This document shows positions 22,690 through 64,000 of a stretch of 64,000 nucleotides of DNA, piece after piece. Below the pieces are notes generated by a model. That model searched no databases. It saw only the letters and a program-made list of their open reading frames with translations, and was not told the DNA's origin. How positions within the stretch are numbered: position 1 is the first letter of the stretch; each line of letters starts with the position of its first letter. The position numbers and the translations under genes were made by a program. The stretch spans positions 40,238,001-40,302,000 of the forward strand of contig OX597827.1 of NCBI GenBank assembly GCA_951406725.2, in the 5' to 3' direction. Origin of the DNA: Octopus vulgaris (lineage: Eukaryota).

Positions 22690-22800
22690 CAAACAAACTC
22701 TAACAACTGCAGGAAGTCAGTCACTACACGACAACAAACAGTGGCGAGGCTTCGATTTGAAACCGGCTGGGTTTATGTTATTGTCGTATCGTTCAAAGAA
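22690..22800. promoter_or_regulatory. Putative TMED promoter region
   Basis: CpG-enriched patch 130-240 nt upstream of the ATG, with ETS/GABP-like CAGGAAGT at 22710-22717. Confidence 0.4.
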
Positions 22801-23306
22801 ACAGCGATTGATAATTAAATATATGCTTATATATATGATTTAAACTACTCATGTGTAAATGTGTCGTATTATGTATGTATATATAAATATACACATATGC
22901 TTGTGCGTGCGTATAAATATGTTTTATGGTAATATTTATATAAACACTGTCAGAAGATGCAGACGAATATATTGTTTTTTTTTTCCAAAGAAACAGATGA
23001 CAGTCCAGAGAAGGAAATTGTTACAAAAGAAAAAAAGAGAAAAGAAAAAAAATCAAGAAGGAAGAAAGACAATATGGAGCAAACAAAATCCTCTCCTTTC
23101 TTTTTTTACAACTCGAGGGGCGTGTAAGTGGTATCGGAGCCGGCCAGGTTTTATATGCTTAGTGACGGCAATGGCGACAGTGATGGCGGACCGAGTGACG
23201 TGGCTTTTCCGCTCGCCAGACGGCGTTTCGGTAGAATTTCGTGCTTCCGCTTTGATGCGTTGATATTTTGCCCCGTGTTTCTATATAAACGTGTATATCC
23301 GCAAAA

Positions 23307-23337
<31 letters not shown>

Positions 23338-23671
23338 TAAAGCTTAAAAGTATGCTAAATTATTGAAGATAGAATATAATAGTTATTAATTGTAAAGATC
23401 CGTAAGTACTTCTAATGAAAGGGAAAAGAAAAAGAAAACTTCGTACACAATACTATTCAATTTTTTTTTTTTAATATAGTGAGTTTGTGCCCATCTGAAT
23501 AATGATGTGGGCGAGCCAAAACATCGACTAAATAAAAATATATATACTCAGGACGTCATTCAAAACTGAAGTTGATGGGAATGAAACAAGTAATCAACTG
23601 CATATGTATCGATGATACACCTGTGGGTAGAAATCAATAAGTTATTGATCACCAATAAATGTAATAAAGTA

Positions 23672-39044: not shown

Positions 39045-39359
39045 TTAAACCGAGTCTAGTACAGGTGGCTCATAACCCTCTGGTCTGGAAACCTTCTCTC
39101 CAGTTTCTGTGCCAGATGCACCAGTCGTGCTCTTGCCTTCACCATGCAGCTCCATCAATTTACCAAGATCAAATTTGGGTTTCTTCAATACTTTCACCTT
39201 CCTGATGAAGACATCGTGGAGAGGGTAGATACCTTGACAAGCCTTTTCAATATCCTTGCCAATACTATCAGGGATGAGTTTGTTGACCACTTCTTTCATG
39301 TCATTAGCAGTGACCTCCCGGGTGATGATCTCAACCATCTTTTTCCTGATTAGTTTTAC
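39045..39359 (-). CDS. RPS3A: 40S ribosomal protein S3a (eS1), coding exon 2
   Basis: Acceptor ttttatag|GTA; [16 protein letters not shown]...[31 protein letters not shown]...[10 protein letters not shown]; 315 nt; spliced protein 264 aa. Confidence 0.97.
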
Positions 39360-41768
39360 CTATAAAATGCAATAAAATGTAAATATATAACATACACGCA
39401 ACACAAGAAAATATGCACACAATAAAGATGACAGGATACAGGATCACAAGCTCCTTGCATCTTGCTGCCAGTATACTAAGTAGCTAAACTCTCAAACAAC
39501 CTCTGTGAATTGGGATGGATACAGTTCATTTGAATGCAGGAGACCAATAACAACAAACATTTTGCTTCACATGGTTTACTTTCTAAAACATTCATGTTTA
39601 TTATTGGCCTGCAATGGATGATATGATTGTTGTATTGTCACTATTCCCAGTAAATAGGAATACTGGATTGTTTAATTACTTTTGTGGTCCTGAAGCAAAT
39701 ATTTGGTATAGTATGCTATCCACACCAAATATTCAGTGGATACAAGGGAATAACCTAACTACAATACCTCTAGTTTTTTTTATTTTTTATACAAAATTTC
39801 CAGAAATCTTTGTTCTACAAGAAGTTACTATAACAATGACAAGATATCTATTGTTTGCTATCCAGCCTCAAAACTAATCATTATTTTAATTAAGTCATAT
39901 CATCTTGGTGTTGATGGGATTTCTTCCTGAAACAACCCTGCCAGAACTTCTGTATTTGTAATTAGCAAAGACAAAAGAATCCTGAGGCTCCAGTCACTAA
40001 CTTGATGCATGGTCAAGATGAATATAAATTTGTTGTGTTGCAATACCACCCAGCCCAGCTGTAAACCAGTAGTGGTGAAATATGCACAAACTTCCATAAT
40101 CTCTTCAATCCTTTCTCAGTTCTAGGATTGAAAGCATCTCAACGTTGACCAACCAACTTGTCTTTTTACAGACAGTAAATTACACAAACAGCCTCTTCGC
40201 TTTTAGTGCAAGTATGAGTGAAATGAAAGGATGGTTGACAACAGAGAATCAGTGCAACGCCAGCAATTATCTGCCACAGGGGACTTGTATCTCTTACAAA
40301 TTGACGATTAAGGTCTTTCTTATTTAAAAAAAACACATGTACAATAGAGTAACATAAATTTGGGGTAAAGTAGTCGAATGCGAACGTAAACAACGACTTT
40401 CTGTACGAAACAGAAGGGACCACACGAAGCGACATCGAAAGCTAAAACAGAAAATTAAATTGAAGATTTTCGAAATTCAAGCTGTAAGAAACTAATTATT
40501 TGAAATTTTTGGCGAGAATATTTTCGAGGTCATCTACAACCTCCTCCCCCATGAAATCAACAATCTGAATGTATTTGGTCAGAAAACAATTAGAATACCT
40601 AGCAAAAAGTCATCCGTAAATTATATTCTGATATTATAAAAAGAAAAAGCCTAACTTTGTAACATTCATTAAATATTCGTCGTAACTATACACTTAGCTT
40701 CAACCGACTCATTAACTACAACAAAACGCAGGCAATTCGGTAAAAATGGGATTAGGATTAGAAGTCTTTATATCCATTCTTAATTTTTATTTGATCGATT
40801 GTAGACGATAGAGAAAGGAAAAGTAAATTTCAACTTTAGAATAATATGGATTAACAAAAATTGGGCCTCACGTCTTCCACATTCCCTTAGTATATTTTTA
40901 CCCGTATGAAAATGCTGTTACACTATCAGCTGCTTTACAGTGTCCTGCATACATGCATTTAAAATTTATTTTCGATAATCACAAATATTAAAGAATATAA
41001 TAAAAATACAAGTACACACACGTGTTTCGTCCACAGTCGAAGTTATTTTTGTTCGATGGATGGCTCCGTACTATGTGAGGGTAATCATAAGAATACTTCA
41101 ATATGCGTTGAAAGATTACTTTTTATTTTAACAATTTTTATTGTATTAACATGATTGTTACTCAAAAATTAACCAAACGAACTAATTCTACCGCATAGAA
41201 ACGGTAATAAAATCAGAAAAATACATCAACACCAGAAGCCGGCCGGTTGTCCTGTAATTTAAACACGCTATGTAAAATTCCTTCGGTAATCTATTCATTA
41301 CAATCTAAATAAGAAAATCCGATTTCCAATAATTATTTTCAAAAACACTGTTTATTTAGCAATGGAAATTCCATTTCCTAGGTCCTTCTTTCACATATGA
41401 ACGAATTTTGAAAATCTCCTACCACACTGATAATGTAAATGTAACAGAAACAGCATGTCAATCTTAATTAGTCAGTGTAAAGTTTTGTCGATAATCCAAA
41501 GGTTTAAAAGAAAATCTTTTACAGGCGGAAGTATTGCACCGAACAATTAATATTCCCAATGATTTTGTAAAAAACAAAAAAATGCTTTTCATACATAAAT
41601 CGTCGCCTCGTAGCGCTGACATTTGTTGAAGATTTACCCCTCAGATAGATACCTAATGTTAAGCAACAACGATATTAGACTGCATAAATTACAATAATTA
41701 TAATAAAAACATGGATTTAAGTGCAACAATTATCATCATAATCGCAGGGGAAAAAATAACAAACTTAC

Positions 41769-42248
41769 TTGAGCATGTTGAGCATAACATGTCTTCTTGT
41801 TTTGGTTGGGCTTCTTTTTGGTGAAACCGATACAGAACATTCTCAACAGATATCCATCAGTGGTTCGTACATCGACATGTGCCTGAATCAGAGTCTGCCA
41901 TTTCTTCACCATGGAACACAATTTATCTCTGGTCAGGTCCATGCCGTGGAAATTGGTAAGAACGTTTTTGCCTTGAACTTCTTCGGCGATCAGCTTCATC
42001 TTGCGGAAGGCAATTTCGTCATTTTGAAGATCTGCTAGAGATACTTCAAACACGCGGCCTTTCAGACCTTCGGAGGCAATTTTAGTACCTTGTGTTCTAG
42101 TTACTAAAGTTTTGCCGACTTGCCTAATGTTAAACATACTAGGGGCTTTGACATCATACCAATCTTTTTTCGTGAAAGGGTCTACTGGTTTCTTTTTTTG
42201 GCCCTTTTTTCCACCTTTTGTAAGCCTCTTATTTTTACCAACCGCCAT
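41769..42248 (-). CDS. RPS3A: 40S ribosomal protein S3a (eS1), coding exon 1
   Basis: [16 protein letters not shown]...[14 protein letters not shown]...CYAQHAQ; donor CAA|gtaagt at 41768; 480 nt, phase 0. Confidence 0.98.
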
Positions 42249-44844: not shown

Positions 44845-47140
44845 GAAGACAGGTATTCTAGTTAATGGAGAAGCAGAAAAAATGTTTGCCTTTGTTCAGC
44901 CATGTGAAGACCGAAGACTTGAAGTTTTTCGGATTGCAAGACAGTCTATGTGAGAAAATTGTGATGTCATAGAAGAGAAATATGTCTGCATGGATGGTGG
45001 CACTCTTGCATGTAATGATTCTGCAAAGAAAGAAGCTTGGAAATGTCATTATGAAAAACTGCTGAACATGGAGGAGAGTCTGTGAAATGTTGACCCAATT
45101 GGGAGACCAGCTATCTGAATTGACAGTATCTTGGTAGATAAAGCAATTAAGAATATGAAGACAGGGAAAGTTCCCAGCCCATCAGGAATCACCACTGAGA
45201 TGCTTAAAATATCTAGTGGTGTGGGTTATGGTCTAGTCACCTGTATTGTAAATCAGGTGGTTCATGAAGGAATCATACCCAATGATTGGGGTAGCAGCAC
45301 CATAGTCAATTGCTACAAATGTAAAAGTGATACCTTAGATAGGAATAATTACAGATGTATCAAATTATTGGATCAGATGATGAAAGTTATGGAGAGAGTC
45401 AGAGCCCAACTAATTAGGGAGAAAGTTAGTCTAGATGAGATGTAGTTTGGTTTTGTGCCAGGTAGAAGCACCACTGATGCTATATTTCTGGTAAGGCAGC
45501 TGCAAGAGAAATACATAGCCAAAGATAAAACCTCTGTACTTGTCTTTTATTGACTCAGAGAAAGCCTTTGATAGAGTCCCCTGATCCCTTATCTGGTGGT
45601 CAATGTGGAAACTAGAGATAGATAAGTGGTTGGTCAGAGCTGTACTAGCCATGGACAGAGATGCTACCAATAAGGTGAGGGTTAGCAACAACTACAGCAA
45701 AGAATTCAGGGTACCAGTAGGGGTTCACCAAGGAATGGTCCTCAGCCCCCTCTTGTTCATCATAATCCTCCAGGCAATAACAGGAATTTAAGATAGGTAG
45801 CCCCTGGGAGCTCTCCTATGTTGATGATCTTGTTCTTATAGCTGAATCACTACCAGAACTAGAGAAGTTTCAGGTATGGAAGCAAGGTCTAGAATTGAAG
45901 GACTTTGAATTAACCTAGCAAAAACCAAAGTCTTAGTAAGTAGGAAGGCAGACAAATCACAAATCCCTTCAGGTAGATGATCTTGCTCAATCTGTAGAAA
46001 AGGCATAGGTAGAAACTCCATAAGATGTACTTGGGACACATAAGAAGTGTGTTAACAGGGAAAATAGCTTTTGTGTGTGGAAGATGCACAGGTACAATAA
46101 ACACCAAAAAGGTACAGAAAACAGACTTCATCAACTGCCAGCAGGGTAAGCTAGAGGTAATAGATAGCTTCCATTATCAAGGTGACCAAGTTAGTAGCAG
46201 AGGTGAATGCTCTGAGAGCATAGCTGTGAGAATAGGATTAGTCCGGGCAAAGTTCAGAGAGCTCCTACTTCTGCTGGCAACAATGGGCCTCTCCCTCAAA
46301 GTGAAAGGCAGATTGTATGATGCCTGTGTATGAACAACTATACTACATGTCAGTGAAGCATGAGCTGTGACAGCTAAGGACATGTGTAGGCTTGCAAAAA
46401 AATAAAGCCAGTATGCTTCACTGGATGTGCAATGTCAGTGTACATGTTTGACAGATTGTAAGCATCTTGAGAGAAAAGTTGGGCATAAGAGGCATCAGAT
46501 GTGGTGCACAAGAGAGACGACTACACAGGTGTGGCCATGTGGTGCATATGGATGGGGACAGCTATGTAAAGAAGTACCGATCTCTAACTGTGGAGGGAAC
46601 ATGTGGTAGAGCTACACACAAGAAGACATGGGATGAGGTGGTGTAGCATGATCTTTGAACTTTGGTCCACACAGAGGAAATTACTAATGCCTGAGACCTT
46701 TGGCATTATGCTGTGCTTGAGCAGACCTGTCAAGCCAAGTAAAATCGTAGTTGTGGCTGATGTCAGTGTCATGTAACTGGCACCCATGCTGGGGGCACAT
46801 AAAAAGCACCTTTTGCATGTTGGGCCTCTTGAAGCACAGCGGCTGATGCTGGTGGCATGTGAAAAGTTCCTTTTGATTGTTGGACCTCACAGAGGCAATG
46901 ACCAAGACCTTTGGCATTATGTCGTGCTTGAGAAGAAGTCCCATCAAGCCAAGTAAAATTGCAGTTGTGGCAGATACCAATGTTGTGTCAGTGGCATGTA
47001 AAAGCACCCATTATACTCTTGGAGTGGTTGGTGTTAGGAAGGGCATCCTACTATAGAAACCATGCCAAATCAGACTGGAGTATGGTGCAGCCTTCCAGCT
47101 TGCCTGGTCAAACTGTCCAACCCATGTCAGCATGGACAAT
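44845..47140 (+). mobile_element. 5'-truncated RTE-clade LINE, reverse transcriptase pseudogene with 3' UTR
   Basis: MKTGKVPSPSGITTEMLK, NNYRCIKLL, FGFVPGRSTTDAIF, GVHQGMVLSPLLF and LLYVDDLVL (YxDD); many stops. Confidence 0.9.
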
Positions 47141-47629: not shown

Positions 47630-48660
47630 GTGGTGTGTTTTCTTATTCTTTTTTTTTTCTTGTGGGGGAAATGGAGTGGGTGGGTTTGGTGTCTGTATGG
47701 GGAGGGTGGGTCTGAGTGATCTTGGGTGGGATGGAGTTGGACTGGGGTACCACATCATACTCAGTGTCTTTTCTTTTTTTTCTCTTTCTCTTTCTGCTCT
47801 CTGTAACTTTCCATTCTTCCTCCTTTCCTCAATCTGCCTTTTCTTCCTCTCTTTTCTCTTCCATCTCCACAACTGTTTCCTCAGCCATTGTCCTCTGTAG
47901 AGGGCAGTATGCTCTAATGTGGCCCTTTTGGCCACATTTAAAACAATGTGGTACTCTACCCTCTACCTACACCCTCAGCACGATTTTCCCCAATGTCACC
48001 GTCTCTGCCAAGTTCTCCAGTTGCCCTCATCCGTCTGAATAATGAGTTCAAGTGTCTTTCCTTTCCACCCTCCTTCTTCCGTTTCTGTGGCTTGGAGGAC
48101 AGCCACCTTCTCCTTGCTTCCAACAAGGACAGCTGCTGCTACCCAAGCCACTTCTATATCTGGTGAAATTGCTTCTACCCTCACCTTGGAAGTCTTTCTT
48201 CCAAGGTATGTAGGCAGAAGCACTACTTCCTCTGTTTTCACTGCCACACTCGCCAGCCTCCTCACCTCCTCTATTGTCCTAAATTGGACGACTGTTGTCC
48301 TATATCTTCTTTGATTGTTCCCTCAGCGCCTTTTCCACTTCTGCTTTTTTTCCTTTTAACGAATACACCTTATAGGTGATCGTTTTCCTCTCCATAATTC
48401 CTTTGGGGAGCGACATCTTCATGTCGCTGCTCACCTTCTCATACTCCTTCAGACCAGCTAAGTCTAGCTCCCTTCGCGTCACTTCTGTGGCTTCAGCAAA
48501 ACTCCTTATCTTCAACACTCTGTCCATCTTTATGACTGCCCTTACCAGCTCCTCCTCCTCCTCTGACAACTCAGACCCATCAAGGTCTGAGTACATCTTC
48601 TATGCAACACAAAAAACTACGTCTGACTCTTACGAAATCCAGACAGCAAATAACCCAATG
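47630..48660 (-). mobile_element. Frameshifted gag/ORF1-like retroelement fragment with CCHC zinc knuckle
   Basis: Minus strand reads PHCFKCGQKGHIRAYCPL (~47897-47952; CX2CX4HX4C), preceded by broken ORF pieces 48300-48596 and 47996-48265 and followed by a charged tail and A-rich end. Confidence 0.7.
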
Positions 48661-48679
48661 CATGCACAGATGCAAGCTT

Positions 48680-48905
48680 CTTATTTCTTTATTGCCCACA
48701 AGGGGCTAAACACAGAGAGGACAGACAAACGGATTAAGTCGATTATATCGACCCCAGTGCGTAACTGGTACTTATTTAATCGACCCCGAAAGGATGAAGG
48801 GCAAAGTCGACCTAAGCGGAATTTGAACTCAGAACATAGCGGCAGACGAAATACGGCTACGCATTTCGCCCAGCGTACTAACATGTCTTCCACCTCGCCG
48901 CCTTC
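48680..48905 (-). mobile_element. SINE (second family), well preserved
   Basis: Minus-strand head 'ggcggcgaggtggaagac...gagttcaaattccgc', core 'gtcgactttgcccttcatcctttcggggtcgat', tail 'gggcaataaagaaataag'. Confidence 0.85.
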
Positions 48906-49251
48906 TTACCACACAGCCTCACCTGTGCCTGTGTATGTATTATCACCATCTACTGTTTGCAAGATGTTCTGGTTATACAAACTAATGAAGCTGCAAATAT
49001 TTTGATGAAACTGTAGCTAACTTTTTGCCAATGTTGGTAAGAACATTATATGAGAGGATTTCACCAGATACTAGTTCATTTTCTAATTTTACATGTTTGA
49101 GTATTTCATGTAAGTTTGATGAAACAAACAAGAGAAATAGGATTCAATATAAGAGTATATATGCTTTTCCTTTTAATTAGCAGAAAGTTACACAAGTTAT
49201 TCATAGGCTGAGTTTTATGAAATTTTCAGCTAAGTTACTTTTCTAACTTTA

Positions 49252-49668: not shown

Positions 49669-50068
49669 CAAAATTCACAACAGCTGTTTCAGCAACATTT
49701 TATTGATGCATTCTCAGATAACATCATGGCAAAACCCCTCCATCTTTAGGTAAATTTCAAATATATAAACAGGTAAGGTAGAAATAGAGGCAACTAGTTT
49801 CCAAAATTCACAACAGCTGTTTCACTGGCAGTTTATTGATACATTCTCAGATAACATCATGGCAAAAAAACCCCACCATCTTTAGGTAAATTTCAAACAT
49901 ATAAACAGGTAAGGTAGAAATAGAGGCAACTAGTTTCCAAAATTCACAACAGCTGTTTCACTGGCATTTTATTGATGCATTCTCAGATAACATCATGGCA
50001 AAACCCCACCATCTTTAGGTAAATTTCAAACATATAAACAGGTAAGGCAGAAATAGAGGCAACTAGTT
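49669..50068. repeat. Tandem repeat, 3 copies of a ~133-136 bp unit
   Basis: Units start at 49669, 49802 and 49938 with 'caaaattcacaacagctgtttc...gaaatagaggcaactagtt'; nearly identical. Confidence 0.95.
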
Positions 50069-51649
50069 CACCCACAATCATGGCAGACATTTTCCATTAT
50101 GATTGTTGGTTAACTGGTGTCAATGCAGAATGTGCTACATGTCCTTGACTGAACTAGAGAATACTACTGTCTCAGCAAGAGGTGACAGATCAGCATTTCC
50201 TTCCAAGTTGATCCAGTTTTAATATAAAATAAAGAAAAGAAAAAAGAAGATACACCCTCCGTCCCATATAACTTCTCTGTCAGAATGATATCTTAACTTA
50301 GTACAACTTTTATTATGTTTGGTGAGTTGTAATGACACATTTATATTGGCGCGGTTACAAAGTTCGCTACACAACTACGTTGTTTCAGGTTTAATCCAAT
50401 TACATAACATGACCACAGTAGTTAAATTTAGTAGGCAGAGAACATATTTGGAGCGGTAGACTAATCCGCCATTCGGTTTAACATGACTATCTAACACCTT
50501 AATGTATAAAGTATGTTGCCGATAGATATCAGACACTCCCACCTCTCAGCAGTGTCCACTCAGTTGCAAGAATTCGGTCAACTCTTCGGTATGAGGACAA
50601 CTCGCACTTTCTAGTTTCGGAAGCTCTGAACATGGGCGCTGCACTTCCTCCTCTTGACTAAATAGTCTACACAAATATATAAATTTGAAAAAAAAAAAAA
50701 AAGAGCTTCTTTGAAAAAGTTACGGTATGAATAAAAAAGAAAGTAAAAGAGAAAGGTCCTCCATTAAATCTCATATCTGTCATAAATGTTATGTATAAAG
50801 TTTACAGAAACGAATAATCATGCCAACAATCTCACTTTTGTGAAATTTATTAACATACTTTTGCTGACGCAGACCGCTAAGTTTAGCCGGGCTGGAGATT
50901 TTCTTTCCTGTTATGTAATTGTAATTGAGAGAAATTGGTTTAGAATTTAATACCACTTTTTATTTTAAACTAAATTAAATGTCATATTCAATAAAATATA
51001 CTTCATCTGCATCCAACTGACTTTAACTTAGAAAAGAGAGAAAAAAAAGAAATAAAAACAATTTTTGGTTCATACGAATCATTCTCAGAATCTTTCCTCA
51101 GTCAAGTTCACACTTGCTTTACCCAAAATGCAACAGGCATCCGGCTGATTATAATATTTGTCCGAAAAAAAAATTGATAAATATTAATTATTCACGAATA
51201 TAATTATCATATTTTATTAATATTAATACTTTCAGTCGTAAAGGAGTATGGATTTAATTTAAGCGAATAAATATACACTAATCTCTGTCCTATTTTTATT
51301 TACTTCCTACCCACTTATCGGTTCTACGAAAAAAAATATATAACTTAAAACAATCATTTTTATTTGAGATATATTTAATCTACATTTATTACCATTAATA
51401 AAAAAAGAAACACTTTCAGAACTTCCGTTCCAGCTTCCATTTATATATATATATATTTATAAAATAATACATTTCAGTGACTAATCATTAAAAAGGATGT
51501 CTCCTCTTCCATTTCTTTTTATAACCTAATTAGACTATGTTGATATTTGTCGTCAAATCAGTGTATAGAAATATAATCCTTTGAAAAAACCCAGATTACT
51601 TATTACCTAAATTAACATTGTCATATGTTAGAATAGAAATTACGAGTGA

Positions 51650-51800
51650 AATAAGAGATAGAAAGAAGGGACGAAGAGGAGGTTAAACTCCGCAGTTGAT
51701 CCTGTCTCCTCCCGTTTCTGCGCGTCTAGTTTTCTACTACCGTGCATGCGCTGTCCGTTTATCTCGGAGCTCCATTATTGTTCTGCTGCTGTTGTAGCGA
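51650..51800 (+). promoter_or_regulatory. Putative CpG-rich promoter/TSS of the C6orf62-like transcription unit
   Basis: Abrupt switch from very AT-rich to CpG-rich sequence; 'tgcgcg' and NRF1-like 'gtgcatgcgc'; it precedes the chain of plus-strand ORFs. Confidence 0.45.
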
Positions 51801-51972
51801 GCGAAGAGGACAGCTTGCTTGTTCTCTTTCTTTATTCTTTCAGACAAATATTTCATTGCTTCTGGTACTGATTTTGTCAGTCAGCAAATCTTCCACTGAG
51901 TCTCATGCAGAAACTTGCCGTAGCAGGAAATATGCTGTCGTGCCTTTCTCGGCACTGCCTCATACTTCGACC

Positions 51973-52785
51973 ATGGATGTTGACGAAGGACCCAGCAACA
52001 TATACATAACAGCCCTGTTGGCAGAGAGACCCACCAACTCTTTTTGTAATTATAATAATAATTACTATTATAATCTTTGTTGTCAACGCCAACGCCCCTT
52101 GCCTCAACAACTTCATTACTGTTACTATTACAGCTACTGTTATTATTACTATTACCACTCTCGTCATCTTCGCCAACTCACTGGAATCTCTTCTACTGCG
52201 ACCAACAACACCAATCTCATTGCCGCTGCCCTTGCTGCTGCTACCTCTATAACCACCATTTATATAGCCTTATTTGCTGTTGTTGACAGTTTTCTATTTC
52301 TTCTGTTTTTATCAGCGCATCAAAACACCAACATAGACAACAACAGCACAAATACTGACATTAAGACCACCTCTATTACAAATAACAGAACCAACATAAA
52401 CTCCAGTAGAAACACCATTAACAATAACACGAACATTACCACAGTTGTCTCCACGACGAACAACAACAACAACAACAACAGAAAGTATTTAACTAATACT
52501 CAAAGCACTTTTCTCTCTTTACCCGTCTCCTCTTACTTCTACCTCGCCAGTAACAAGTACACGACCATCGACATAGACCAGGGTGACATCGACAACATTG
52601 TCGGCATCAACCTCAGCAGCAAAAGGAAACGACGTTCGAACAGAAGTGACGGCGCACAACAGTCAACACAATGTCTCGGAAGTGATTGCGAATGGGACTG
52701 TCTCGATGAGAAAAGCTTGTTTGAAACGATCAATTTCCTATCATCCTACCCGCTCACATCATCATTTGTAGATTTAATCAAATAG
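51973..52785 (+). CDS. Putative 270-aa ORF (possible large uORF or first cistron) with a hydrophobic segment, N/T-rich linker and a Cys/acidic C-terminal motif
   Basis: ACCATGG Kozak start; 813 nt open (frame open from at least 51742) through trinucleotide repeats; C-terminus KRKRRS...CLGSDCEWDCLDEKSLFETINFLSSYP; no homologue recognised. Confidence 0.4.
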   Translation: MDVDEGPSNIYITALLAERPTNSFCNYNNNYYYNLCCQRQRPLPQQLHYCYYYSYCYYYYYHSRHLRQLTGISSTATNNTNLIAAALAAATSITTIYIALFAVVDSFLFLLFLSAHQNTNIDNNSTNTDIKTTSITNNRTNINSSRNTINNNTNITTVVSTTNNNNNNNRKYLTNTQSTFLSLPVSSYFYLASNKYTTIDIDQGDIDNIVGINLSSKRKRRSNRSDGAQQSTQCLGSDCEWDCLDEKSLFETINFLSSYPLTSSFVDLIK

Positions 52786-53269
52786 AACTGATAGCCAGAG
52801 AGAGATAGGAGAGCAACAACGATATTATAACAGTAATGATGATAGTAGCAAAGCTGTATTAAGTAAATTATTCGCAACTATACATACAAAACAATCATAC
52901 ACATTATACATTTAATATGTAAACAATATTGTATATTTATTTTGTATACATAACTCTTATAGCAACATGTATTTAGACATAAGTTAACAGTGAATTTTCA
53001 GATGGGAGGGAATAAGGTTCTATCTTAAAACTCAGTATTTAAGCTTTTTTTGTTTTTTTTTATATGCACTCATGGTTTCTCAGAGTCCCGAATTAGATTT
53101 ATGTAATAATTATTTTTATTACAACACATCTATTTCTTAGCTAAGCCAAACACTAGTTTGCTTGTTGACTGAAAACAAATTTTTTTCAATATGCTTGCAA
53201 GTTGAAAGTGAATTTTTTTTTTTCTTTTGTTTTTGGTGTTACTATCTGCTGTAAAAATCATTTTTCAGC

Positions 53270-53539
53270 ATGAAGTCGCTAGCAACGGGTATGAACGGGG
53301 TAGTTTCTGCCACCATTTGTGATAAACCTTGTTGTTCTTTGCCTCTGTCGATTCAACTGCCTCCTCCACCACACTCTGTCGCCTCTAATACCACCACCAC
53401 TGTTCCTCCGTTAATAGCTTTCGCCGCTGCCACCATTCCCATTGCGTCCATCAGTCTCAGTAATACAAGCCACATCAGCATGCCACCAGCGATAACAACC
53501 GCTGCTGTTGCCCCTTGTTTGCAGACCCTGTTGTTTTGA
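53270..53539 (+). CDS. Putative 89-aa uORF
   Basis: ATG 2 nt after a candidate acceptor tttttcag (53268); GC-richer block in AT-rich surroundings; Pro/Thr/Ala-rich. Confidence 0.25.
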   Translation: MKSLATGMNGVVSATICDKPCCSLPLSIQLPPPPHSVASNTTTTVPPLIAFAAATIPIASISLSNTSHISMPPAITTAAVAPCLQTLLF

Positions 53540-53805
53540 TTAAGCATTTTAACAACAAACCCTCCATAACATATACTGGGCACTTGCCATTCCCTCCCTT
53601 CCTTATTTTCTTTCTAAACCTCTATTTTCTCCTTTCTTTTATGGGGGTGTGTGTTATCATGTGAAATGAGTTATATAAATATGTATAAATAAATGAATGT
53701 AATTTATCTATATATATTTTAGTGTATATTGAACAGTTTTCTTCAGAATGACATCATAAAAGGAATTGGGATTTGTGTTCGAAAAAAAAAAAAATTGTAG
53801 GAAAA

Positions 53806-53985
53806 ATGACGAAGTCGCATTTTGAAGCAGACCTTTCGGTGGGTCTGTCTATTTTGCGAAGAACTCATTATATTGTCCATGGGCTTGTTGATGATTTCGG
53901 TGTCCCATCTCCACCACCATCACATTCGTCAGTCCTAATAGCATCACTAATTACTTCTCTTTTCTTTCCTTTAGAATCTTGTTGA
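53806..53985 (+). CDS. Putative 59-aa uORF (MTKSHFEADLSVGLSILRRTHYIVHGLVDDFGVPSPPPS...)
   Basis: AAAATGA start (A at -3); complex, protein-like sequence island; candidate acceptor ttttcttcag at 53746 upstream. Confidence 0.3.
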   Translation: MTKSHFEADLSVGLSILRRTHYIVHGLVDDFGVPSPPPSHSSVLIASLITSLFFPLESC

Positions 53986-55438
53986 GTAAATATATATATA
54001 TATATAATTTTTTTCATGATAGAGTGTACAATAGACGTGTACATGTATAATAGAAATGTGTGAGCATGAAATAGTTGTGTGAATAGGTTGGAAGTTCATA
54101 AATGATTTGAAGTTTCTTTGGGAAAGATATATTTTTGAAAAGAAAGAAAAAAAGTGGGTTAAAGAAAAAAAAAAATTAAAATGTATTTTTTGTTAATGTC
54201 ATTTTATTAATATCATACTATTGTGAAAAAAAATCTACAAAAAAATGTATTAGTGATGCAAAATATAGATTTTGTTGTGTTCGTGAAGGTGAGAATTTTT
54301 TTTTAAACCTCACAAAAATCCAATTAAATATATATATATATATATTTAAAAATGTAGATTTATAATATGAAAAAACCCCACAAATATTTGTATGTTAGTT
54401 TGTAAAAACTAAAAAAAAAAAAAATATATATATAAATATAAATCTACACAATCCCATATTCCCTTTTTCCATTCCTTTTCTCTGCTGAGAAAACCAGTAT
54501 GTTTAAGTCTACATGTATATAATACTAAATGACTTGACTATTGGGCAAAAAGAGTTATATAAAATATATCTGCGGTATGGATATAATAAGGGCTGAAAAT
54601 CTTGTTCTAAACTAAAACAGGTGACAACTATGGCAAATACTTAGGAAATATTGAAAGAGAAAAGGGAGAAAAAAAAAAGCACCAGCACAGCTTTTTTTTC
54701 CTGAAAAATTTGGTTCAGACCAAAAAGTTTTCAATAATTACAAAAATAAAAAAATTCTTTAGGTTTTTAGATGCTTTGATGAAGGGACAGGAGTTAAAAG
54801 AAAAGAAGAAAACCCAGAATTAAAAATATACAAATCACTGATAGTGTTAACATAGTTTGTCAAATAAGATGGAAGAATGATTAAAAGAAATTAAGATAAT
54901 TTTTGAGGTGATATTGGGCACGAGAATTAAGTCTTCAATTGGTACAAGCACGACTACAACAAGTCGATACTGTACAAGTTAAAAGTTTTTGTAGTCTTGG
55001 AGTGAAATTCCATTGGCTATATATGATTATCTTCTCCAAGTAAGGTTCTATTTGAAACTACTTCCCAATATTTCATAGATTGCAAACTTTTTTTTTTCAA
55101 AGATTGTTGTTGACTCCTGTAGTACAACAGTTTTAATTTTTTTCCTTGGTTCTCATTTTTTTTGTTTTCAATTGTCAGCAAATCCCCTACATAAAGAAAA
55201 GGAAAACGAATTACTTTTAATGATTTTTTTTTTCCACAGTGTGTATAAGTTAATCTACAGTTAATTTATTTGATCTCATTCTATTCCCATTCCTTTTGTC
55301 ATCAACAGTTTGTTAATCATCTTAGGTGTCTATAGTTATAAGTTTTCAAGCTCATCTCTCCTTAGTGCTATAATAGGTTTCATCCTGTTGTTGAGGAATC
55401 ATATAGTTTAAATAAAAAGAAAAGAGAAAACCAGTAGG

Positions 55439-55567
55439 ATGGGGGATTCCTATACACGCAAGCAGACGGCTGTGAACCGGCTGAGGCATCGACTGAGAAA
55501 GAAACGAGAATCTTTGGCAGATCATTTTGACTTCAAAATGTACATTATGTTCCATTTCAAAGACAAG
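55439..55567 (+). CDS. C6orf62: C6orf62 orthologue (DUF4566), first coding exon
   Basis: [43 protein letters not shown] closely resembles the human C6orf62 N-terminus as recalled ([43 protein letters not shown]); AGGATGG start; donor AAG|gtatgt; 129 nt; later exons not found in the window. Confidence 0.9.
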
Positions 55568-55729
55568 GTATGTATCAGTTTTTTAATTTAAATTTTTTAA
55601 ACATTTCTAGTTTTGTAATCACTAATTTGATGTTTTTAGAGCCCAAACATGATTGCAACAGTTAAATTTGTTATTTATATTTCAGAAATGTATGTTCATT
55701 ATGATTTATCGTTGTCTCCAATAAACACC

Positions 55730-56030
55730 ATTTGAGTGTTGGGCCTCATGGAGGCAGTGACAGGTGACAGACCTTTGGTGATATACTGTACTTGTGTAGA
55801 CCTGTCAAGCCAAGTGAGACTGTAGTCGTGGCCGATGTCAATGGCATCTGTGCTGGTGGCATATAAAAAACACCCACTATACTCTTGGAGTGGTTGGCGC
55901 TAAGGTTAATCCAGCTGTAGAAACCTTGCCAAATCAGACCAGAACTTGGTGCAGCCCCTGGTTTACCAGTTTTCAGTCAAACTGTTTAACTCATGTCAGC
56001 ATGGAAAACAGATGTTAAATGATGATGATT
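55730..56030 (+). mobile_element. RTE-family 3' UTR fragment
   Basis: Matches 46820-47140; ends 'cagcatggaaaacagatgttaaatgatgatgat'. Confidence 0.75.
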
Positions 56031-56566
56031 ATTGTGTGCTAAAGGCAACAAACTGGCAGAAAGGTTAACATGCCAGGCAAAATGCTGCTAAGCATTTTGC
56101 CCATCTTCACATTCTGAGTTCAAATTTTGCTGGAGTTGATTTTGCTTTTCAGGATCAATAAAATAAGTACCAGTTGAGTACTGGGGTTGATGTAATTGAC
56201 TTATGCCCACCCCACCGAAATTTGAAACCAATATTATTGTGGACTGAAGAAAGAGATTTTGTTTTTGCCCCCCTAATTTATTTCTTAGAAAGTATTTGTA
56301 TTCAAAGCAGAAGCCACACAAAGCAATGATGGAACTTCTGTACAGTGATTCAAATTACTCAACATAGCAGCCAAGTATGCTCTTACACACTTTTAGTGCC
56401 TGTAAAATAGGAGCTTCTATGTACTTATTGAAATTGTTGGTTGGGCCATAATGATGGGACAGTTATGTAATAAATATATTTGTTATTCTGTCATTTTTGT
56501 AATCCAAGATACTAGCATTTAAAATGTCCCATTGATATGGTCTACCCTGTATATATGTATTATTTA

Positions 56567-56601
<35 letters not shown>

Positions 56602-56689
56602 TTTTATAAAGCAACTAAACAACTCAGATTGAAGGCTTTTGATCTGACCATCAGCATTTTTGATCATCTTTCTGCTGTTGCCCCTACTG

Positions 56690-57620
56690 TATATGCTGAT
56701 GGGAAAGCATTAAAAAACTGTTTCTTCCTTCACTTATCTTGATTCTATTGTGTCCAGTGATGCTAAGATGGATAAAGAAATCAAGCCCAGAATTGTGGAG
56801 GATAGCTCCACTTTCAATAAGCTTTATCACAGGCTTTGGAACAGTTACAACATGTTGAATGTGGAAGTTGGTGTTTATCAGTTGGTAGTCATGACAACAT
56901 TGCTTTATGGTGTTGAATCTTGGACTTTCTACTGGAAGTGCATCAAGCAGCTCGATGCTTTTCATATGTGATGCTTGTGTACTATCTCTAACATAAAACC
57001 GAGTGACCATATTCATAACAATGAGGTACTAAGAAAATGCAACATTTAAGGTATTGAAGCCATCATCAAAATACAACTTAGATGGTCAGCATCTCTCACG
57101 TATGAATATCAGGATTCCAATGCAACTTCTCTTTGGCCAATTTCTAACAGGAACGTCTATTGGAAGGCCTCTCTTGCACTTTAAAGACAAACTAAAAGAC
57201 AATCTGAAGTGATGCCACATTCCTTTTTCTTCCTGGGAAAACAAAGCATCGGAATGCAGGATCTGGTGCCAGTCTTGCTTCTCCTCAACTCAAAGATATG
57301 AGCAAAGTTGACTGCAAAATTGGGACCAACTTCATGCAAGCATGAAGACATGCTGGCAGAACACTGCTCCTCTAAATGAAAACCTTACCTGTCATTGTGG
57401 TTTTGTGGCATGAAGCAAAGCAGGCCTTGCCATTCACTCAAGAAACCCATTGTAAATGACCTACAGTCACTCAAGCAAATTGAGTTCTCAACTCATTCCA
57501 TCTGCCAAAAGGTTTGCAAGGCACCTGCAGGCCTCAAGAGACACATTTGTGTCCATAGAACATGATTAACACTTTATTTTACTGAACCATCATTTGTTGT
57601 TCACAAGAGAATCCATCATC
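56690..57620 (+). mobile_element. RTE (BovB-like) LINE 3' fragment, distinct family
   Basis: VVMTTLLYGVESWTFYWKCIKQLDAFHM, NNEVLRKC, QLRWS and terminal Cys/His motifs (ICQKVCKAPAGLKRH); stops present. Confidence 0.75.
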
Positions 57621-58119
57621 TGTATGTATGTAAACTTTTACAAATTGTTAACCATGAGTTAACTTGTAGTGATTATAGTTGCCAGGTGTGTCCCTAGTAT
57701 CATTAGATATAAGAACAAGTAAGGTAAAATAGTGAGACAGTTTACAATAGAAGAAAGGAGGATGATTCAGGACTACCATTTATATTATGTAATGTCTTTC
57801 TACTCTAACTTTACAAAAATATAGTTACTGCTTTGATAAAGAGTTCTCTAAGGTTGGTACTTAATTTTTATGTAGCCTTAGATTATTTGAATCAGTAGTT
57901 GTTTAGACATAAGTTATCTGTGAATTAGGGTTTTGCATCCTTTTAAATGTATCTAAGACTACATGTGTGACGGTTATTTTGAACAGATCAAGTAACCATG
58001 TAGTGACTCCCTCATTGGCTTGTTAGAAGTAATAGTAGAATGTGGTAATGGCTGAAATCACAATGTTAGTATGTTGTTCTTTTTTTTTAAAAATTTGTAG
58101 CTTTCAGTCTATCACAACT

Positions 58120-58672
58120 ATTTACCATCCATGTTGGCATGAGTTGACCAGAGCTGGCAATTTGGAGAGCTGCACCAGGCTCCAGTCTAATTTGGCATGA
58201 TTTCCCTTCCTAATGTAGATAACTTTACGGAGTGTGCTGAGCACCGCACAAGCGCATTTACATGGCACCAGCACAGAACTTTTGCAGGTCGATTCTCTTC
58301 ACTAGGGTGACTGTGAAGCACAGGTCTTGAGTACAGCAAGGCACGAGGCATCTTGGTCCTTAGTCATGTCATCTCGCCTGTAAGGTTCAGCGTCTTGAGG
58401 TTGTATTTCAGTAATTTGCCCCATGACTTCTGGAGTCTTCCCACTTCCACCGTTCCATTTACTTTGGGAGGTTGGCACTTCTTTATGGAGCTGTTGGCAT
58501 CCATCTGCATCACATAGCCAAACCAGTGCATTCTTTCTTCCACACAGCATCTAATTCCTCTTATGCTTAACTTCTCTTTCAATACACTAGAACTCTGTTG
58601 AACATGTACATTTACATTAAGCATTCAGCAGAGAAACTAGCCTCAATCCTTTCCCATCTTTGCATCTCCTCT
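58120..58672 (-). mobile_element. RTE-clade LINE 3' fragment
   Basis: LKEKLSIRGIRCCVEERMHWFGYVMQMD plus the family 3' UTR. Confidence 0.8.
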
Positions 58673-59903
58673 ACATTCAGGGATCATGTCTCACTACCAT
58701 ATTTCTTGTTTTTATTGCACTACTTACTGCGGCTAAGTGGGCCTTGAAGAGTGTAGTGTTTTGTTTCGGTTTTGTATTTTCAATTGTATAATAATTGAAT
58801 AATAATAGGGAGGGAAGTGACCCAACCCCCCACCTAATTTGCTGAAAGGTGAGAGAGATGAGAATGCTCCAAATGAATGGGATTACTTCAAAGTGCACTT
58901 ATTTTCTCATAACAGTTTAGAACGGTGACTTGTGGAATAATTAATCTCTCTTATTTAAAGAGACAAACAGTTTTTGAATTCCTGAATCAGGAGCTCAGTA
59001 TTTCATTCATTCTTGTTCTCCATTTCTGAGAGTAAATAGAGCTAACTTCCATTTTTTTCATTTGAATGTGGTAAATGGAATTAAGTTTTTGTAAAATCAA
59101 AGTAAGAGATTGTAACAGAAAAAACAAAACAAAACCAAAAAAAACAAACTTGGATAACATAATTAAAACTTAGTTTAGTCCTTCTGCATTAAGTTATTGA
59201 AGAGTTGGAACAGTGTCCATGATCTTTTGTGGTCTTTCTCATACTGGTGAGACTGATATTTGCTTTGAATCCAACCTGAGTTTGAATGTTAATTCCAAAG
59301 TTTCAATCTTAGGGAAGTTTTGGGGGAGTGTTTAATATGAGATCTGAGAGGGGTGTCTAAGTGAAGAGGTGTGTAGATAACTAGATTCAATGGAGTAGAG
59401 GCTTTGTAGTCTGGCAGAAGCAGAAAGGAAGAAGCTTTTCTGTAATATAGAGATAGTGATATGTTGGGGAATGAATTTTTTACTAATCAGTCAAATGATC
59501 ATTTGAATGTAGTCAAGGATGTGTGTATTAACGTAGCAAGAACACTCTCCAATCTTATATCTGTGAAGTTTCTGTGAGAGGTCTCTGCTGACAAAAGAAA
59601 AAGCTGCCATTTTCTTATTGTTTTGTTAGTAGGTAAACTAAATTAATCAATAACATTTTCCTAGTATTGCTGATTTAAACCTTTTGTTACCATATTTGTG
59701 ATAATATAGGCTGCCTTTGTTTCAATTGATTTTTAAAATAAATAAGAATTTAGTAAAGTAACTTGCTAACTTTTAAGCTGGGGTCTGGAACAATTTAGCA
59801 TAAAATTTTGACAGATTATAATTTAGATCATCTTAAAAGATTAAGTTTATTATAGAACTTGGGGTGGTCTGAGGCAGGTTGATATCAAAAGGGTTATTGT
59901 ATA

Positions 59904-59967
59904 AGTACATCAACATATTGTGAGTGGTACAAAATTAAGCAGACCACTCACAATATGTTGATGTACT
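59904..59967. repeat. Perfect inverted repeat (25-bp arms, 14-nt loop)
   Basis: agtacatcaacatattgtgagtggt (59904-59928) / accactcacaatatgttgatgtact (59943-59967). Confidence 0.95.
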
Positions 59968-60469
59968 CATTATGCTCTTACAAATGATAGATGAAGTGAG
60001 TAACATTTAAACTACGCATACTTTATCTGGCTGACTTCTAAATGGAATAGAGTTGTCTATGAGAATCTGGTGTAAAATATATTACCTTAATAAATCCATC
60101 CAGTGGTTAAACGATGCTGTTTTGGGCCAACAGAAAACAAAAAAAAAAATGTTCTGTGTAGACTTTTGGAAAATTGGAACATTGAAAATCATTGCATACT
60201 TTATTTACAAAAATATGAAAGAAACCATGAAAAAAACGTCTATGAGTTTATAAGCCTAATTACACATACACACAAGACTTTTTTTTAAAGAGATATTTTC
60301 ATTGTGTGTAAAATTTAACTGAGTAGATGACTTGTATATTTTTCTTTTAGTTGTGAGATCTTGTAACTGGTATTTAGCAGTGAAACCCAGCTGGTGTCTG
60401 CAGACGGTCTTACTGTGAATGCTAATAAATCTGTTTCCTGGAGTATTGCTTGCATAATATTGGTTTCAA

Positions 60470-60675
60470 ATTTTGGCATAAGGTCAGCAGTTTTGGAGGA
60501 GGGGCCTATTCGATTAAATTGACATCAATGCTCAAATTACATTTATTTTATTGACCCTAAAAGGATGAAATGCAAAGTCGACCTTGGTGGAATTTGATCT
60601 CAGAATGTAAAGATGGACAAAATGTCACTAAGCATTTTCCGTCATGCTAATGACTATACCAGTTTGCTGCCTTAT
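60470..60675 (-). mobile_element. SINE (second family), degraded
   Basis: Core 'aaaggatgaaatgcaaagtcgacc...ggaatttga.ctcagaa'. Confidence 0.7.
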
Positions 60676-62829
60676 TGGGTGTGTATTAACTTGTGAGAAA
60701 GATTGTATAGTGGAGAAAGTGATATGGCTTCTGAAGTCAGATTTATTTACTGAGGGCAAGAATCATTTTGGTGTGGAATACAATGTGAATCAGTAGTGCA
60801 TGATGGGCTAGCCATATTAGGTATAGGCTATAGAAAATTTGAAATGAAGTAATTTAGGTTAGAAGTGAATGTTGCTTTACAAATGATGCACTGCAGATCC
60901 ATCCAAACCATGATGATATGGAGCCCTCACTTTTCTCTTTCATTTTTCTATAGTTGCACTTGTTTATTTATTATGCAACCTTAAAGTAAAAAACCTCATA
61001 TCTAGTTAGCAAAATTCACTTTCACACTTTAAATTCTTCCAAAGTGCTAGTTCTCAGCTTTCATCTTTGTCAGATGGGATATACCCTTAAGAAACCTTGT
61101 TTTGTATGTGACATAATATAGGTTTTAGGGTGTTGGACTCATGATTGTAAGATTGTAGCTTCGATTCTTGGATAGGATGATGTGTTGTTGAGCAGAAAAC
61201 ATTTCATGTTGCTCCAGTCCACTCAGCTGGCAAAAGTGAGTAATCCTTTGAGGGACTGGCATCCTGTCCAGTTAGGGAATACACACACCATGGAAACTGG
61301 GAAATTGGTCCTATGAATCTATATGACTCAGGGAAGAGCTTTACTTTTTTATTACTAATATAGGTTAAGCCATTCCCTCTGGCTTATTCATTCAAAATAC
61401 CTGAGCATTTTACTTAATTGTCTAAACATTGTCATATCTTCAGTTATATATTTTCTTTTTCTCACTTAATTGATAAATGGCTCTAAATGGTACTTGGCTT
61501 GAGGAAAGCTGTAAAAACCTCAGGATGTTCAAATGATTTGATGTGGCTCTTCTGTTGCTATGTGTATAAAATTTGTTTTTACTGACATACATTGACTTTG
61601 AGCTGATCTGATACCAAACAGAAAGTGGAATATTTTGTGATATTTGTACTTCATGTATGTTCACAAACACTAATAAACTGATAACAAAATTCAGTTTCAC
61701 TGTATCTAAGTTATTTTCAAGTTGGGTGTAACTTAAGAACAGAACCAGTTGTTGACTGTTTGCAAATAATGAGATTAACCTGTAGCACAGGGTGTTAATA
61801 TAAGAACAGCAGCTATACTGGCAGTAGTGGTGGTTGTTTAGGTCCAGGTCAGTTCTTATCATAAACACACTTATGATCAAATTTGTTCCAGCTGTGACCA
61901 TTTTTATTCCAGACATAGTGTATTCATGAGTGTATTATTTATATATTTCCTATCTTTTAAAGATGATTGTGTTATCTGAGTTAGGTTTGGCTATTATTTC
62001 AGGCAAGGTGATTGATCATATTAGAAACTTCATTGGTCTATGCTACTTTGGTGCATATGTGAAAGGATGGTGCATCCTTTGTTGAAAAAAAAAGTGCCTA
62101 TATATTTTATGATAAAGTATACATTTAAGACAAGGTAGTTTGCACTTCATTCTTATTAGAATGAAGAAAGGCTTGATTATTGAAAAGGTATCGTTTTGAG
62201 ATGTATAAAAATATTTTTTTACTGACTTGCCTATATATTTCTACCAGTGAAATAGCAAAATGAACATGAGGAGACCTAGTTCTCCTTACATTTAGTACTT
62301 AATGTTATTCTTTATTGTTGGGTAATCTTTTATCAAAGATGTCTTAGCTTTTTCCAAACATAGTATAAACTGTTATTGTGTATGCTCTCCTTTAATGACA
62401 ATATGGTGTGTTTGTGGGACATTTGTTTGCTATTTCTAACAACTTGAGTGGTTATGTAGTCACACTTCATTGGTTTGTCACAGTTAAGAAAGTAGTTGAT
62501 TTATTTTGAGATTCATAGGCATGTATTGGGTCTCTTGCTAGTTAGACATTATATGCAAAGGTTGAATGAAGAAATGTGACAAAAGAGAGATTGGTGTAAA
62601 AGGCAAGCCACTTGAATGAGAGAATTCACTTTGTTTTATAATATTGTCCAGAGATTGACTACATTGAAATTCAGTGAAGCTTCAGCTTCTAATATGGTGA
62701 ATTTGTACCTAAACTCCAACTTGAAATACAGGAATGTAATAGCTACCAAGCTATTATCACTGCTAAGGACTTCCTGTCTGTCTCCTGATGTCTGCCTGGT
62801 TACATTGCAACTATTATGAATTTCTCACA

Positions 62830-63160
62830 GTGGGTACTTTTACTGACCTCATGCCGGTGGCATGTAAAAAGCACCATCCGATTGTGGCTGTTGCCAGCCT
62901 CGTCTGGCCCCCGTGCCGGTGGCATGTAAAAAGCACCATCCGATCGTGGCCGTTTGCCAGTCTTGTCTGGCACCTGTGCAGGTGGCACGTAAAAAGCACC
63001 CACTACACTCACAGAGTGGTTGGCTTTAGGAAGGGCATCCAGCTGTAGAAACAGTCAGATCAGACTGGGCCTGGCACAGCCTTCTAACTTCCCAGACCCC
63101 AGTTAAACCATCCAACCCATGCTAGCATGGAAAACGGACGTTAAACGATGATGATGATGC
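62830..63160 (+). mobile_element. RTE-family 3' end with internal ~62-bp tandem subrepeats
   Basis: Three 'ggtggca(t/c)gtaaaaagcacc' units, then the tail 'ccaacccatgctagcatggaaaacggacgttaaacgatgatgatgatg'. Confidence 0.8.
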
Positions 63161-63313
63161 TGTTTATGCTCCTTTGTGTATTTGTTTTCCTTATTATTAT
63201 ATTAGTATAAATATGTCATAATCTGATTTGATACCTGTTGTTTGCCTTCTATTATATATATATATATTCAAATATGAATATGAAGCAGCCTGAGGGATAT
63301 AAACAATATTGAT

Positions 63314-63791
63314 CACACATACACAAGGTATGTGTTTTGCAAATTCATGGGCAGGCTGCAAGTTATAGGCACAAGAGAATATATGCCTGTTAATTTGCCT
63401 GTTGTTAGAACTCCTGGAAGTCATAGGCAAGTAAGATAACTTGCATCAGCTCCTGTTGCAGGAGCAGTAGACATTATTTACTCATTTTTGTGACTTGCCA
63501 GGTGCAAGCTAAACTGCTGTCTGTTACTATATGCAGGTAAGAACCCTATATTGGTATGTCCCTTGGTGATTTAGCTTGTGTTTGGCCTCATTCGAGTATG
63601 TGGTATTGACAAGTTAGAAAGATAACAAAATATTTTCTACTGCTCTTGCAATGGCACCTGATGCAAGTTATCTTGCTTGTCCATCACTTTCAGATGTTTT
63701 AATACCAGGTGGATTCATTAGAATATATTCTCTTATGCCTATAAATTGCAGCCTGCCCATGAAATGGCAAAACACATCTTGTGTATGTGTG
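63314..63791. repeat. Long imperfect inverted repeat (fold-back)
   Basis: 63314-63385 is the reverse complement of ~63721-63791; 63428-63480 of ~63627-63680; 'caagctaaa' (~63505) of 'tttagcttg' (~63570). Confidence 0.85.
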
Positions 63792-64000
63792 TGGTGTTTG
63801 ATATATTTATGTGTATTTGTTTTAATTTTCATGGCCACTGTTCCATGCTAGCATGGGTGAGATGAATATATTATTGAGGCGTTGTTCTACAATCAGATAC
63901 CTTTCCTGTTGCTAACCCTTGTTTTTCAAGTAAGAGGTCACTTTTTCCATGTGTCTTTAAAAGTACAAAAGCCAGCAGATGATTTGTTGGCAGGGGAAAT

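Follow-up and report, generated by a model that had tools for sequence, protein, structure and literature searches.

The window analysed here, a stretch of 64,000 nucleotides of Octopus vulgaris DNA, contains a long open reading frame (ORF), from which the first coding exon of the C6orf62 orthologue is separated by 2.65 kb on its downstream side. It has homologues in two octopod relatives and keeps its frame, while its peptide drifts fast and mostly without constraint. Judged from these comparisons, we regard it as a real, frame-conserved upstream ORF that is restricted to octopods. As an explanation we tentatively favour a long translated uORF in the first exon of the C6orf62 transcription unit, which would act as a cis brake on the translation of C6orf62 and would likewise be confined to octopods. 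The features discussed below are summarized in Table 1.

Table 1. Positions of the long ORF, its parts and the surrounding signals within the window.
Feature	Position	Strand	Basis and remarks
CpG-retaining block	50501..53500	.	Observed/expected 0.62-1.17, window median 0.21; predicted promoter and first exon
NRF1-like words	51719, 51744		Within the CpG block; presumed motif
Homologous leader DNA, for which P0002 needs 4 frame switches (internal control)	51780..51874	+	Three-frame comparison; indels deduced from protein, not DNA
33 in-frame codons before the ATG, no residue change compared with P0002	51874..51972	+	Strongly kept leader DNA or non-AUG extension
Out-of-frame short ORF across the start of the long ORF	51905..52009	+	ATGs at 51905 and 51932
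Long ORF, 270 codons, ACCATGG start to TAG	51973..52785	+	Translation; homologues P0002 and P0003
N-terminal motif, start and ITALLAER	51973..52029	+	Common to Argonauta, which has an Asn/Thr insertion between Met and ITALLAER
In-frame GT..AG interval of 270 nt, Tyr/Cys-rich and hydrophobic; candidate exitron	52046..52315	+	Corresponds to the part that the Argonauta protein lacks
Asn/Thr/Ser-rich linker of variable length, includes KRKRRS (absent in Argonauta)	52316..52668	+	Sequence comparison
Last 38 codons and stop	52669..52785	+	24 residues invariant in three sequences; core DC-x-WDCL
First AATAAA after the ORF stop	53688..53693	+	Might end a separate transcript, or occur by chance in AT-rich DNA
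Best candidate leader intron downstream of the ORF	54289..55239	+	Predicted; donor 8/9; acceptor-like sites 55178, 55239, 55308, 55365
First coding exon of the C6orf62 orthologue (DUF4566)	55439..55567	+	Pfam PF15130, E 1.8e-18

Translation of 51973-52785 on the plus strand gives 270 residues, in which the hydrophobic, KRKRRS and C-terminal stretches quoted in the first-pass annotation are all present. That annotation had called the ORF the longest of the window, which is correct for the 24 ATG-started ORFs of at least 90 residues and also for the stop-to-stop frame that holds it (351 codons from 51730, the runner-up having 209). The strong start was confirmed as well, the ACCATGG context being common to 6 of the 1373 plus-strand ATGs, the start of the ORF among them. 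Dinucleotide shuffles of the region never attained 270 codons (0 of 1000, maximum 184), and block shuffles with 30-, 60- and 90-base blocks, which keep the triplet tracts and randomise their phase, attained this length in 0, 2 and 8 of 1000 cases. The description of the DNA as AT-rich was overstated: with 41% GC the ORF lies above its downstream flank (36% and 28%) and is therefore not especially AT-rich. Of the microsatellites said to run through it, triplet runs do exist, but they are short and degenerate; of the six perfect ones, five have 3 copies each and the longest is (AAC)7, and the ORF contains none of the 11 rows of Tandem Repeats Finder for the window. Long mono- and dinucleotide runs number 0 in the ORF, compared with 25 in the 2653 nt downstream.

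Homologues were searched with the last 49-51 residues of the ORF as queries, and two were accepted. P0002 is an ORF called directly on an assembly contig, which is 88% identical (E 7e-17) and was one of three candidates in the word-indexed search. P0003 is the Argonauta hians protein GAB1604272.1 from the representative search (E 6.5e-5). A third match, P0004 (E 1.4e-4), was dropped, as this 1204-aa repeat protein shares a short repeated word only and lacks the ends of the motif. The word-indexed searches covered proteins of at least 73 aa, and the representative search, run with one query, took in proteins of any length. Among its 1.84 billion representatives no homologue outside the octopods was found. 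A profile of the three sequences, run over 1292 candidates of 73-2000 aa, returned two proteins, which were the already known P0002 and P0003, and a metagenome scan with the motif gave 190 pattern matches with none confirmed. Conservation among metazoans, which the first-pass annotation had proposed to examine, was thus not seen in the representative, profile and metagenome searches, nor in the two leaders outside octopods described below, all of them weak for unannotated short ORFs.

The reading frame is conserved in both relatives. P0002 aligned to a single frame of the window over the whole ORF in spite of 10 gap events, and the two share their stop. The DNA just upstream served as an internal control: gap events in frame and frame switches number 10 and 0 in the ORF and 0 and 4 upstream (Fisher's test, p 0.001), and runs of at least 4 bases are not denser upstream (5.7 per kb, 9.8 in the ORF). 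In P0003 the Met, ITALLAER, the C-terminal block and the stop can all be matched to the ORF, although only 38 of 127 linker columns (about 30%) are identical. Both the frame-preserving indels and the length-variable linker of the first-pass annotation are therefore borne out, the latter by lengths of 181 aa for P0003, 270 aa for the window ORF and 284 aa for P0002.

The exon at 55439-55567 belongs to the C6orf62/DUF4566 family according to its PF15130 score (67.3 bits, gathering cut-off 27), and all 43 of its residues are identical to the C6orf62 protein P0008 of O. vulgaris and O. sinensis. The first-pass annotation had proposed to look for matches of the ORF next to C6orf62 orthologues. In Argonauta such a match is present, since the homologue GAB1604272.1 carries the accession number directly before that of C6orf62, GAB1604273.1, each on one contig of 30,661,994 bases. 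Read from accession order and contig, we take this as a conserved neighbourhood of the ORF and C6orf62. The genes of A. hians were, according to the available text of PMC12682272, predicted by a pipeline that mixes ab initio, RNA-seq and homology evidence. GAB1604272.1 presumably comes from this annotation, so that P0003 may contain introns and its open frame may be partly imposed.

A single block of retained CpG spans the ORF and fades before the C6orf62 ATG, around which the observed/expected ratio is down to 0.28-0.39. From this block we infer one promoter near 51.7 kb, where two words lie which we take to be NRF1-like. Splice donors were scored against the nine-position donor consensus. 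Between 51650 and the ATG of the ORF the best donor has 5 of 9 matches, compared with 8 of 9 both at 54289 and at 55568, where the C6orf62 exon ends; without a good donor between about 51.7 kb and the ATG, the ORF would sit in the leader. An unspliced leader from 51760 to 55438 would contain 52 ATGs, and some other leader must therefore exist. A TATA-like word at 54558 and a YY1-like word at 54866 allow a second promoter. Rfam gave two sub-threshold matches over 50800-55600, both outside the ORF.

Further features of the locus and of the window were noted in passing. Two ATG ORFs lie between the long ORF and C6orf62 (53270-53539, 89 codons, and 53806-53985, 59 codons), both on the plus strand and locally CpG-retaining. 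Neither has a Pfam match above the cut-off or an exact match in the protein collection, and neither resembles the two leaders outside octopods (106 and 202 of 300 shuffles attain the best score). A motif scan of 55568-64000 did not find the second C6orf62 exon, so that intron 1 is likely longer than 8.4 kb. The O. bimaculoides C6orf62 records P0010-P0012 have a short unrelated N-terminus instead of the conserved first exon. Probably this reflects mis-annotation or an assembly gap at the locus, by which the upstream ORF may be concealed as well. About 9.7 kb upstream of the ORF and pointing away from it, RPS3A (39045-42248, minus strand; Pfam Ribosomal_S3Ae, E 6.5e-56) starts within its own CpG-retaining block at 40.0-43.5 kb, which is similar to that of the ORF. 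A third block of this kind, at 20501-23500, may mark the start of another gene; a 134-codon ORF (22859-23263) is found there beside an (AAT)n tract. Overlapping ORFs of 98 aa (minus) and 194 aa (plus) without Pfam match occupy 48300-49005, and nearby fragments at 45155-46333 look by eye like a decayed retroelement. A 136-base unit forms three tandem copies with 93% matches at 49669-50068.

The peptide changes much faster than the gene downstream of it. Compared with P0002, 32 of 263 aligned residues differ (12%), whereas the C6orf62 changes among octopods amount to 1/186, 2/229 and 10/229 and are mild in kind. By this comparison the drift of the peptide beside a near-static C6orf62 would fit a cis role better than a conserved protein. 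One-base steps account for 29 of the 32 changes in P0002 and for 10 of the 12 C-terminal changes in Argonauta. The mean BLOSUM score is -0.06 for the former, compared with -0.31 for random missense changes (21% of null draws are as high), and -1.0 for the latter, compared with -0.61 (82% of null draws as high). Overall the peptide thus appears to be weakly constrained, and its drift to be mostly unconstrained.

The C-terminal end, which had been described as a constrained peptide on a variable linker, gives a divided picture. In the comparison with Argonauta the constraint is visible, as 26 of the last 38 residues are identical, far above the linker (38/127, p 4e-5). In the comparison with P0002 it is not, the C-terminal block being identical at 32/38 and the linker at 97/113 positions. 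In neither comparison are the substitutions milder than expected by chance. Within the C-terminal end, hydrophobic, aromatic and Cys positions are invariant at 14 of 17 positions and the others at 10 of 21, a post hoc comparison (p 0.043; 0.035 under a mutational null). From these values the end seems to be under extra constraint, for which protein and nucleic acid are alike possible; its predicted RNA fold is nothing unusual (z -0.74) and Rfam gave no match there.

These observations also bear on the explanation that the ORF is a young octopod-specific protein gene which acts in trans. Its product would be a low-complexity protein with two short conserved ends, made either from a short transcript of its own that ends close to the AATAAA at 53688 or as the upstream cistron in a bicistronic mRNA, under a promoter shared with C6orf62. 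We consider this unlikely, if worth serious attention. Although the start with its strong context and the stop are both conserved, and the hydrophobic, aromatic and Cys positions of the C-terminal end are preferentially kept in the post hoc comparison, the substitutions as a whole show no significant excess of mild changes over the random expectation, 21% of null draws being as mild. Argonauta has a separate gene model for the ORF, yet its protein lacks the hydrophobic segment and the basic cluster. No Pfam family was found above the cut-off, and neither a usable Atlas match nor a PDB sequence match was obtained for the protein; DC_STAMP matches in Pfam (17.6 and 19.2 bits, cut-off 25) were put down to composition and discarded. 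The short ORF overlapping the start is what a regulated CDS might have, and 270 codons are not needed for a cis brake.

Neither the hydrophobic stretch nor KRKRRS, on which the first-pass annotation had put weight, is present in the Argonauta protein. This protein is short of about 90 residues, which correspond to the Tyr/Cys-rich and hydrophobic segment, and its maximum 19-residue hydropathy is 1.02, compared with 2.36 for the window ORF. Removal of 52046-52315 from the ORF leaves 180 codons, where Argonauta has 181. Among 31 in-frame GT-AG deletions this interval ranks first; among all 25,989 trial deletions, 320 score equal or better. Its acceptor is pyrimidine-rich (6 of 1926 YAG sites are equal or richer) and its donor is weak with 5/9; the end of the hydrophobic stretch is the translation of the pyrimidine-rich acceptor tract. 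P0002 is open over the segment, with 78 of 88 residues identical. The definition of an exitron, a stop-free GT-AG interval inside coding sequence, describes this interval, which is in frame and open both here and in P0002. It is thus a possible exitron, though a genomic deletion in Argonauta or an intron set by the predictor would explain the gap just as well. Exitrons as described in the accessible part of Marquez et al. 2015 (PMC4484396) share with it the GT-AG ends in an open frame, the lack of stops, a length that is a multiple of three and a weak splice signal; our candidate is known from its sequence. The first pass had noted neither this possible in-frame intron nor the conserved N-terminal motif.

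It could also be argued that what is conserved is promoter-proximal or 5' leader DNA derived from C/A-rich triplet repeats, and that the stop-free frame is incidental and was simply reported by gene callers. Slippage in triplet tracts gives whole-codon indels, and by this alone the phase is kept without selection. Of 2000 simulated neutral copies, 27% were still free of stops after 32 residue changes, which is the distance to P0002, 10% after 60 and 3% after 100; the absence of stops alone is therefore weak evidence. In these alignments the argument for a kept frame is carried by the absence of frameshifts and by the common ends. Nearly all residue changes are one-base and of random type, the ORF had been chosen as the longest one, and the Argonauta model may be spliced around stops. 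In addition, the longest conserved stretch in the comparison with P0002 comprises 60 identical residues which run from the leader before the ATG through codon 27 of the ORF, and it suggests a constraint on DNA or RNA around the ATG. Nevertheless, we regard an incidental frame as rather improbable. Even with the triplet tracts kept and their phase randomised, at most 8 of 1000 block shuffles attain 270 codons, and the four frame switches just upstream have no counterpart inside the ORF. Start and stop both match the Argonauta protein in spite of the divergent linker, and the conserved end shows neither a special RNA fold nor an Rfam match.

C6orf62 is preceded by upstream ORFs outside the octopods as well. 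For the human gene, the available portions of the respective sources report a smORF that is translated and lies in an extension of the 5' end (10.1101/523860), a uORF for which CRISPR tiling gave a selective phenotype (10.1101/2023.05.04.539399), and two 5-aa uORFs, MLELK and MVCST, in a leader of at least 773 nt in supplement coordinates (PMC10032668), while the source data of PMC13303939 class the transcript ENST00000378119.9 as monocistronic. Two spliced C6orf62 contigs from non-cephalopods, L001 and L002 (64% and 58% identical; the two confirmed of 529 pattern matches), have 7 ATGs in L001:1-379 and 9 in L002:1-695, with uORFs of up to 33 and 63 codons, and both leaders may be short at their 5' end. 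Many uORFs may be a general trait of C6orf62. A likeness seen by eye between the motif and the 63-codon uORF of L002 was rejected (hmmsearch E 4 among 53 segments). In spite of the translated human uORFs and the ATGs in these two leaders, it is very doubtful that the octopod ORF descends from an animal-wide uORF peptide, the same element as the human uORF and expanded by repeat slippage in octopods, as no homologue was found outside octopods in searches that are weak for unannotated short ORFs, the two leaders contain nothing similar to the motif (best E 0.26; 702 to 817 of 1000 shuffles attain the best score), and the two human peptides compared, MLELK and MVCST, are unrelated to it. In the literature on C6orf62 uORFs and on octopus or cephalopod uORFs covered here, with subscription journals mostly outside coverage, no paper was evidently about the ORF.

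As far as the available text of the cited studies goes, several known systems resemble the octopus ORF in part. The animal CPuORFs identified by ESUCA (Takahashi et al. 2020, PMC7530721) likewise start with ATG, lie upstream of a conserved main ORF with the homologue adjoining the homologous main gene, and are best conserved at the C-terminal end beside the stop. The octopus ORF differs in its greater length (181-284 codons), its presence in one order only and its non-conservative substitutions. ESUCA asks for a homologue upstream of the homologous main ORF, which is found here through the consecutive Argonauta accessions on one contig, and for conservation in at least two other orders, whereas here one octopod and one close relative were found in searches weak for unannotated short ORFs. 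It also asks for an ATG-started ORF within the 5' UTR of the main-ORF transcript, of which the octopus ORF shows the ATG and the upstream position, a shared transcript being predicted from CpG profile and donor scan. A further threshold is Ka/Ks below 0.5; for the octopus ORF the protein-level proxies disagree (BLOSUM negative, hydrophobic positions marginal). The ORF is therefore CPuORF-like in its anatomy, yet is not filed as a CPuORF.

With the sequence-independent regulatory uORFs (Zhang et al. 2021, PMC7889888; Shepelev et al., 10.1101/2025.07.07.663426, both as far as available) it shares a conserved start codon and a near-neutral peptide, the cis role being only proposed for the octopus ORF. 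In contrast to it, such uORFs are typically broken by stops and frameshifts, the more so if long, whereas the octopus ORF keeps a long frame and the position of its stop. The bicistronic cases described in the accessible text of PMC13303939 (MIEF1 uORF, PYURF-PIGY, ASDURF-ASNSD1 and STREMI-SLC35A4) also comprise a sizeable second ORF upstream of a conserved gene, plausibly under one promoter. Those upstream proteins are clearly under purifying selection across vertebrates, whereas the octopus ORF drifts fast, with 12% change to P0002, and belongs to no recognisable family, as Pfam (above its cut-off), Atlas and PDB gave no usable match. The human C6orf62 uORFs share the downstream gene, and those reported in the available text of 10.1101/523860, 10.1101/2023.05.04.539399 and PMC10032668 are translated and lie in a long leader; among the peptides compared (two, 5 aa each) there is no sequence similarity.

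If the ORF is a cis-acting uORF, as we favour, transcription would start from the CpG-rich block near 51.7 kb, with a promoter common to the ORF and C6orf62. The ORF would lie in an unspliced portion of the leader, and its strong start context would capture scanning ribosomes. After long uORFs re-initiation is inefficient, and the length of 270 codons would accordingly lead to poor re-initiation at C6orf62. Within the ORF it is the better-kept last 38 codons that would count, by slowing or stalling the ribosome at the end; this is about as much peptide as fits into the ribosome exit tunnel. The triplet-rich middle would be a spacer, free to vary in length if the frame is kept. To make C6orf62 protein, ribosomes would bypass the ORF in a leaky or regulated way, or other leaders would be used that are shorter or spliced differently. 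In XBP1u a hydrophobic segment is followed by a C-terminal pausing peptide. The octopus ORF has the same order of hydrophobic stretch, spacer and conserved C-terminal end, its pausing and membrane targeting being putative; there is no sequence relation, and the Argonauta model is without the hydrophobic stretch. A more elaborate version would be an octopod-born, elastic arrest-peptide uORF with a 38-residue stalling end and a repeat-stretched spacer, in which an in-frame intron toggles a membrane-targeting segment, so that splicing of the uORF decides if C6orf62 mRNA is held at the membrane or released, but to this we give hardly any credence.

Stalling by the C-terminal part is reported for many regulatory CPuORFs (PMC7530721, in its available text). 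For the octopus ORF the radical C-terminal substitutions in the alignment with Argonauta argue against a tight arrest peptide. That the majority of uORF peptides show neutral evolution, long ones being seldom retained (PMC7889888), and that many essential human uORFs act in cis (10.1101/2025.07.07.663426) is stated in the parts of these sources at hand. The translated uORFs of the human C6orf62 leader speak for a cis uORF. Against it we count the 52 ATGs of an unspliced leader, the words at 54558 and 54866 that would permit a second promoter, the AATAAA at 53688, which allows a separate transcript, the pipeline model of P0003 with its possibly imposed frame, and the Argonauta annotation, in which the ORF is numbered as a separate gene.

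As a rule, long uORFs are soon lost, whereas this one keeps start, phase and stop while its peptide drifts. Argonauta and Octopus separated at least about 29 million years ago, a lower bound from fossils given in the available text of PMC12682272. The ORF offers a clean case to separate selection on translation from selection on the product, and also a case for watching gene birth in a 5' leader. Should its frame be incidental, the ORF would instead caution against orphan gene models in the repeat-rich leaders of cephalopods. C6orf62 itself is a highly conserved gene to which no function has been assigned, and its human leader also contains translated uORFs, one of them with a CRISPR phenotype. 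If the octopod ORF is independent of the human uORFs and unrelated to them, this would suggest that C6orf62 needs tight translational restraint.
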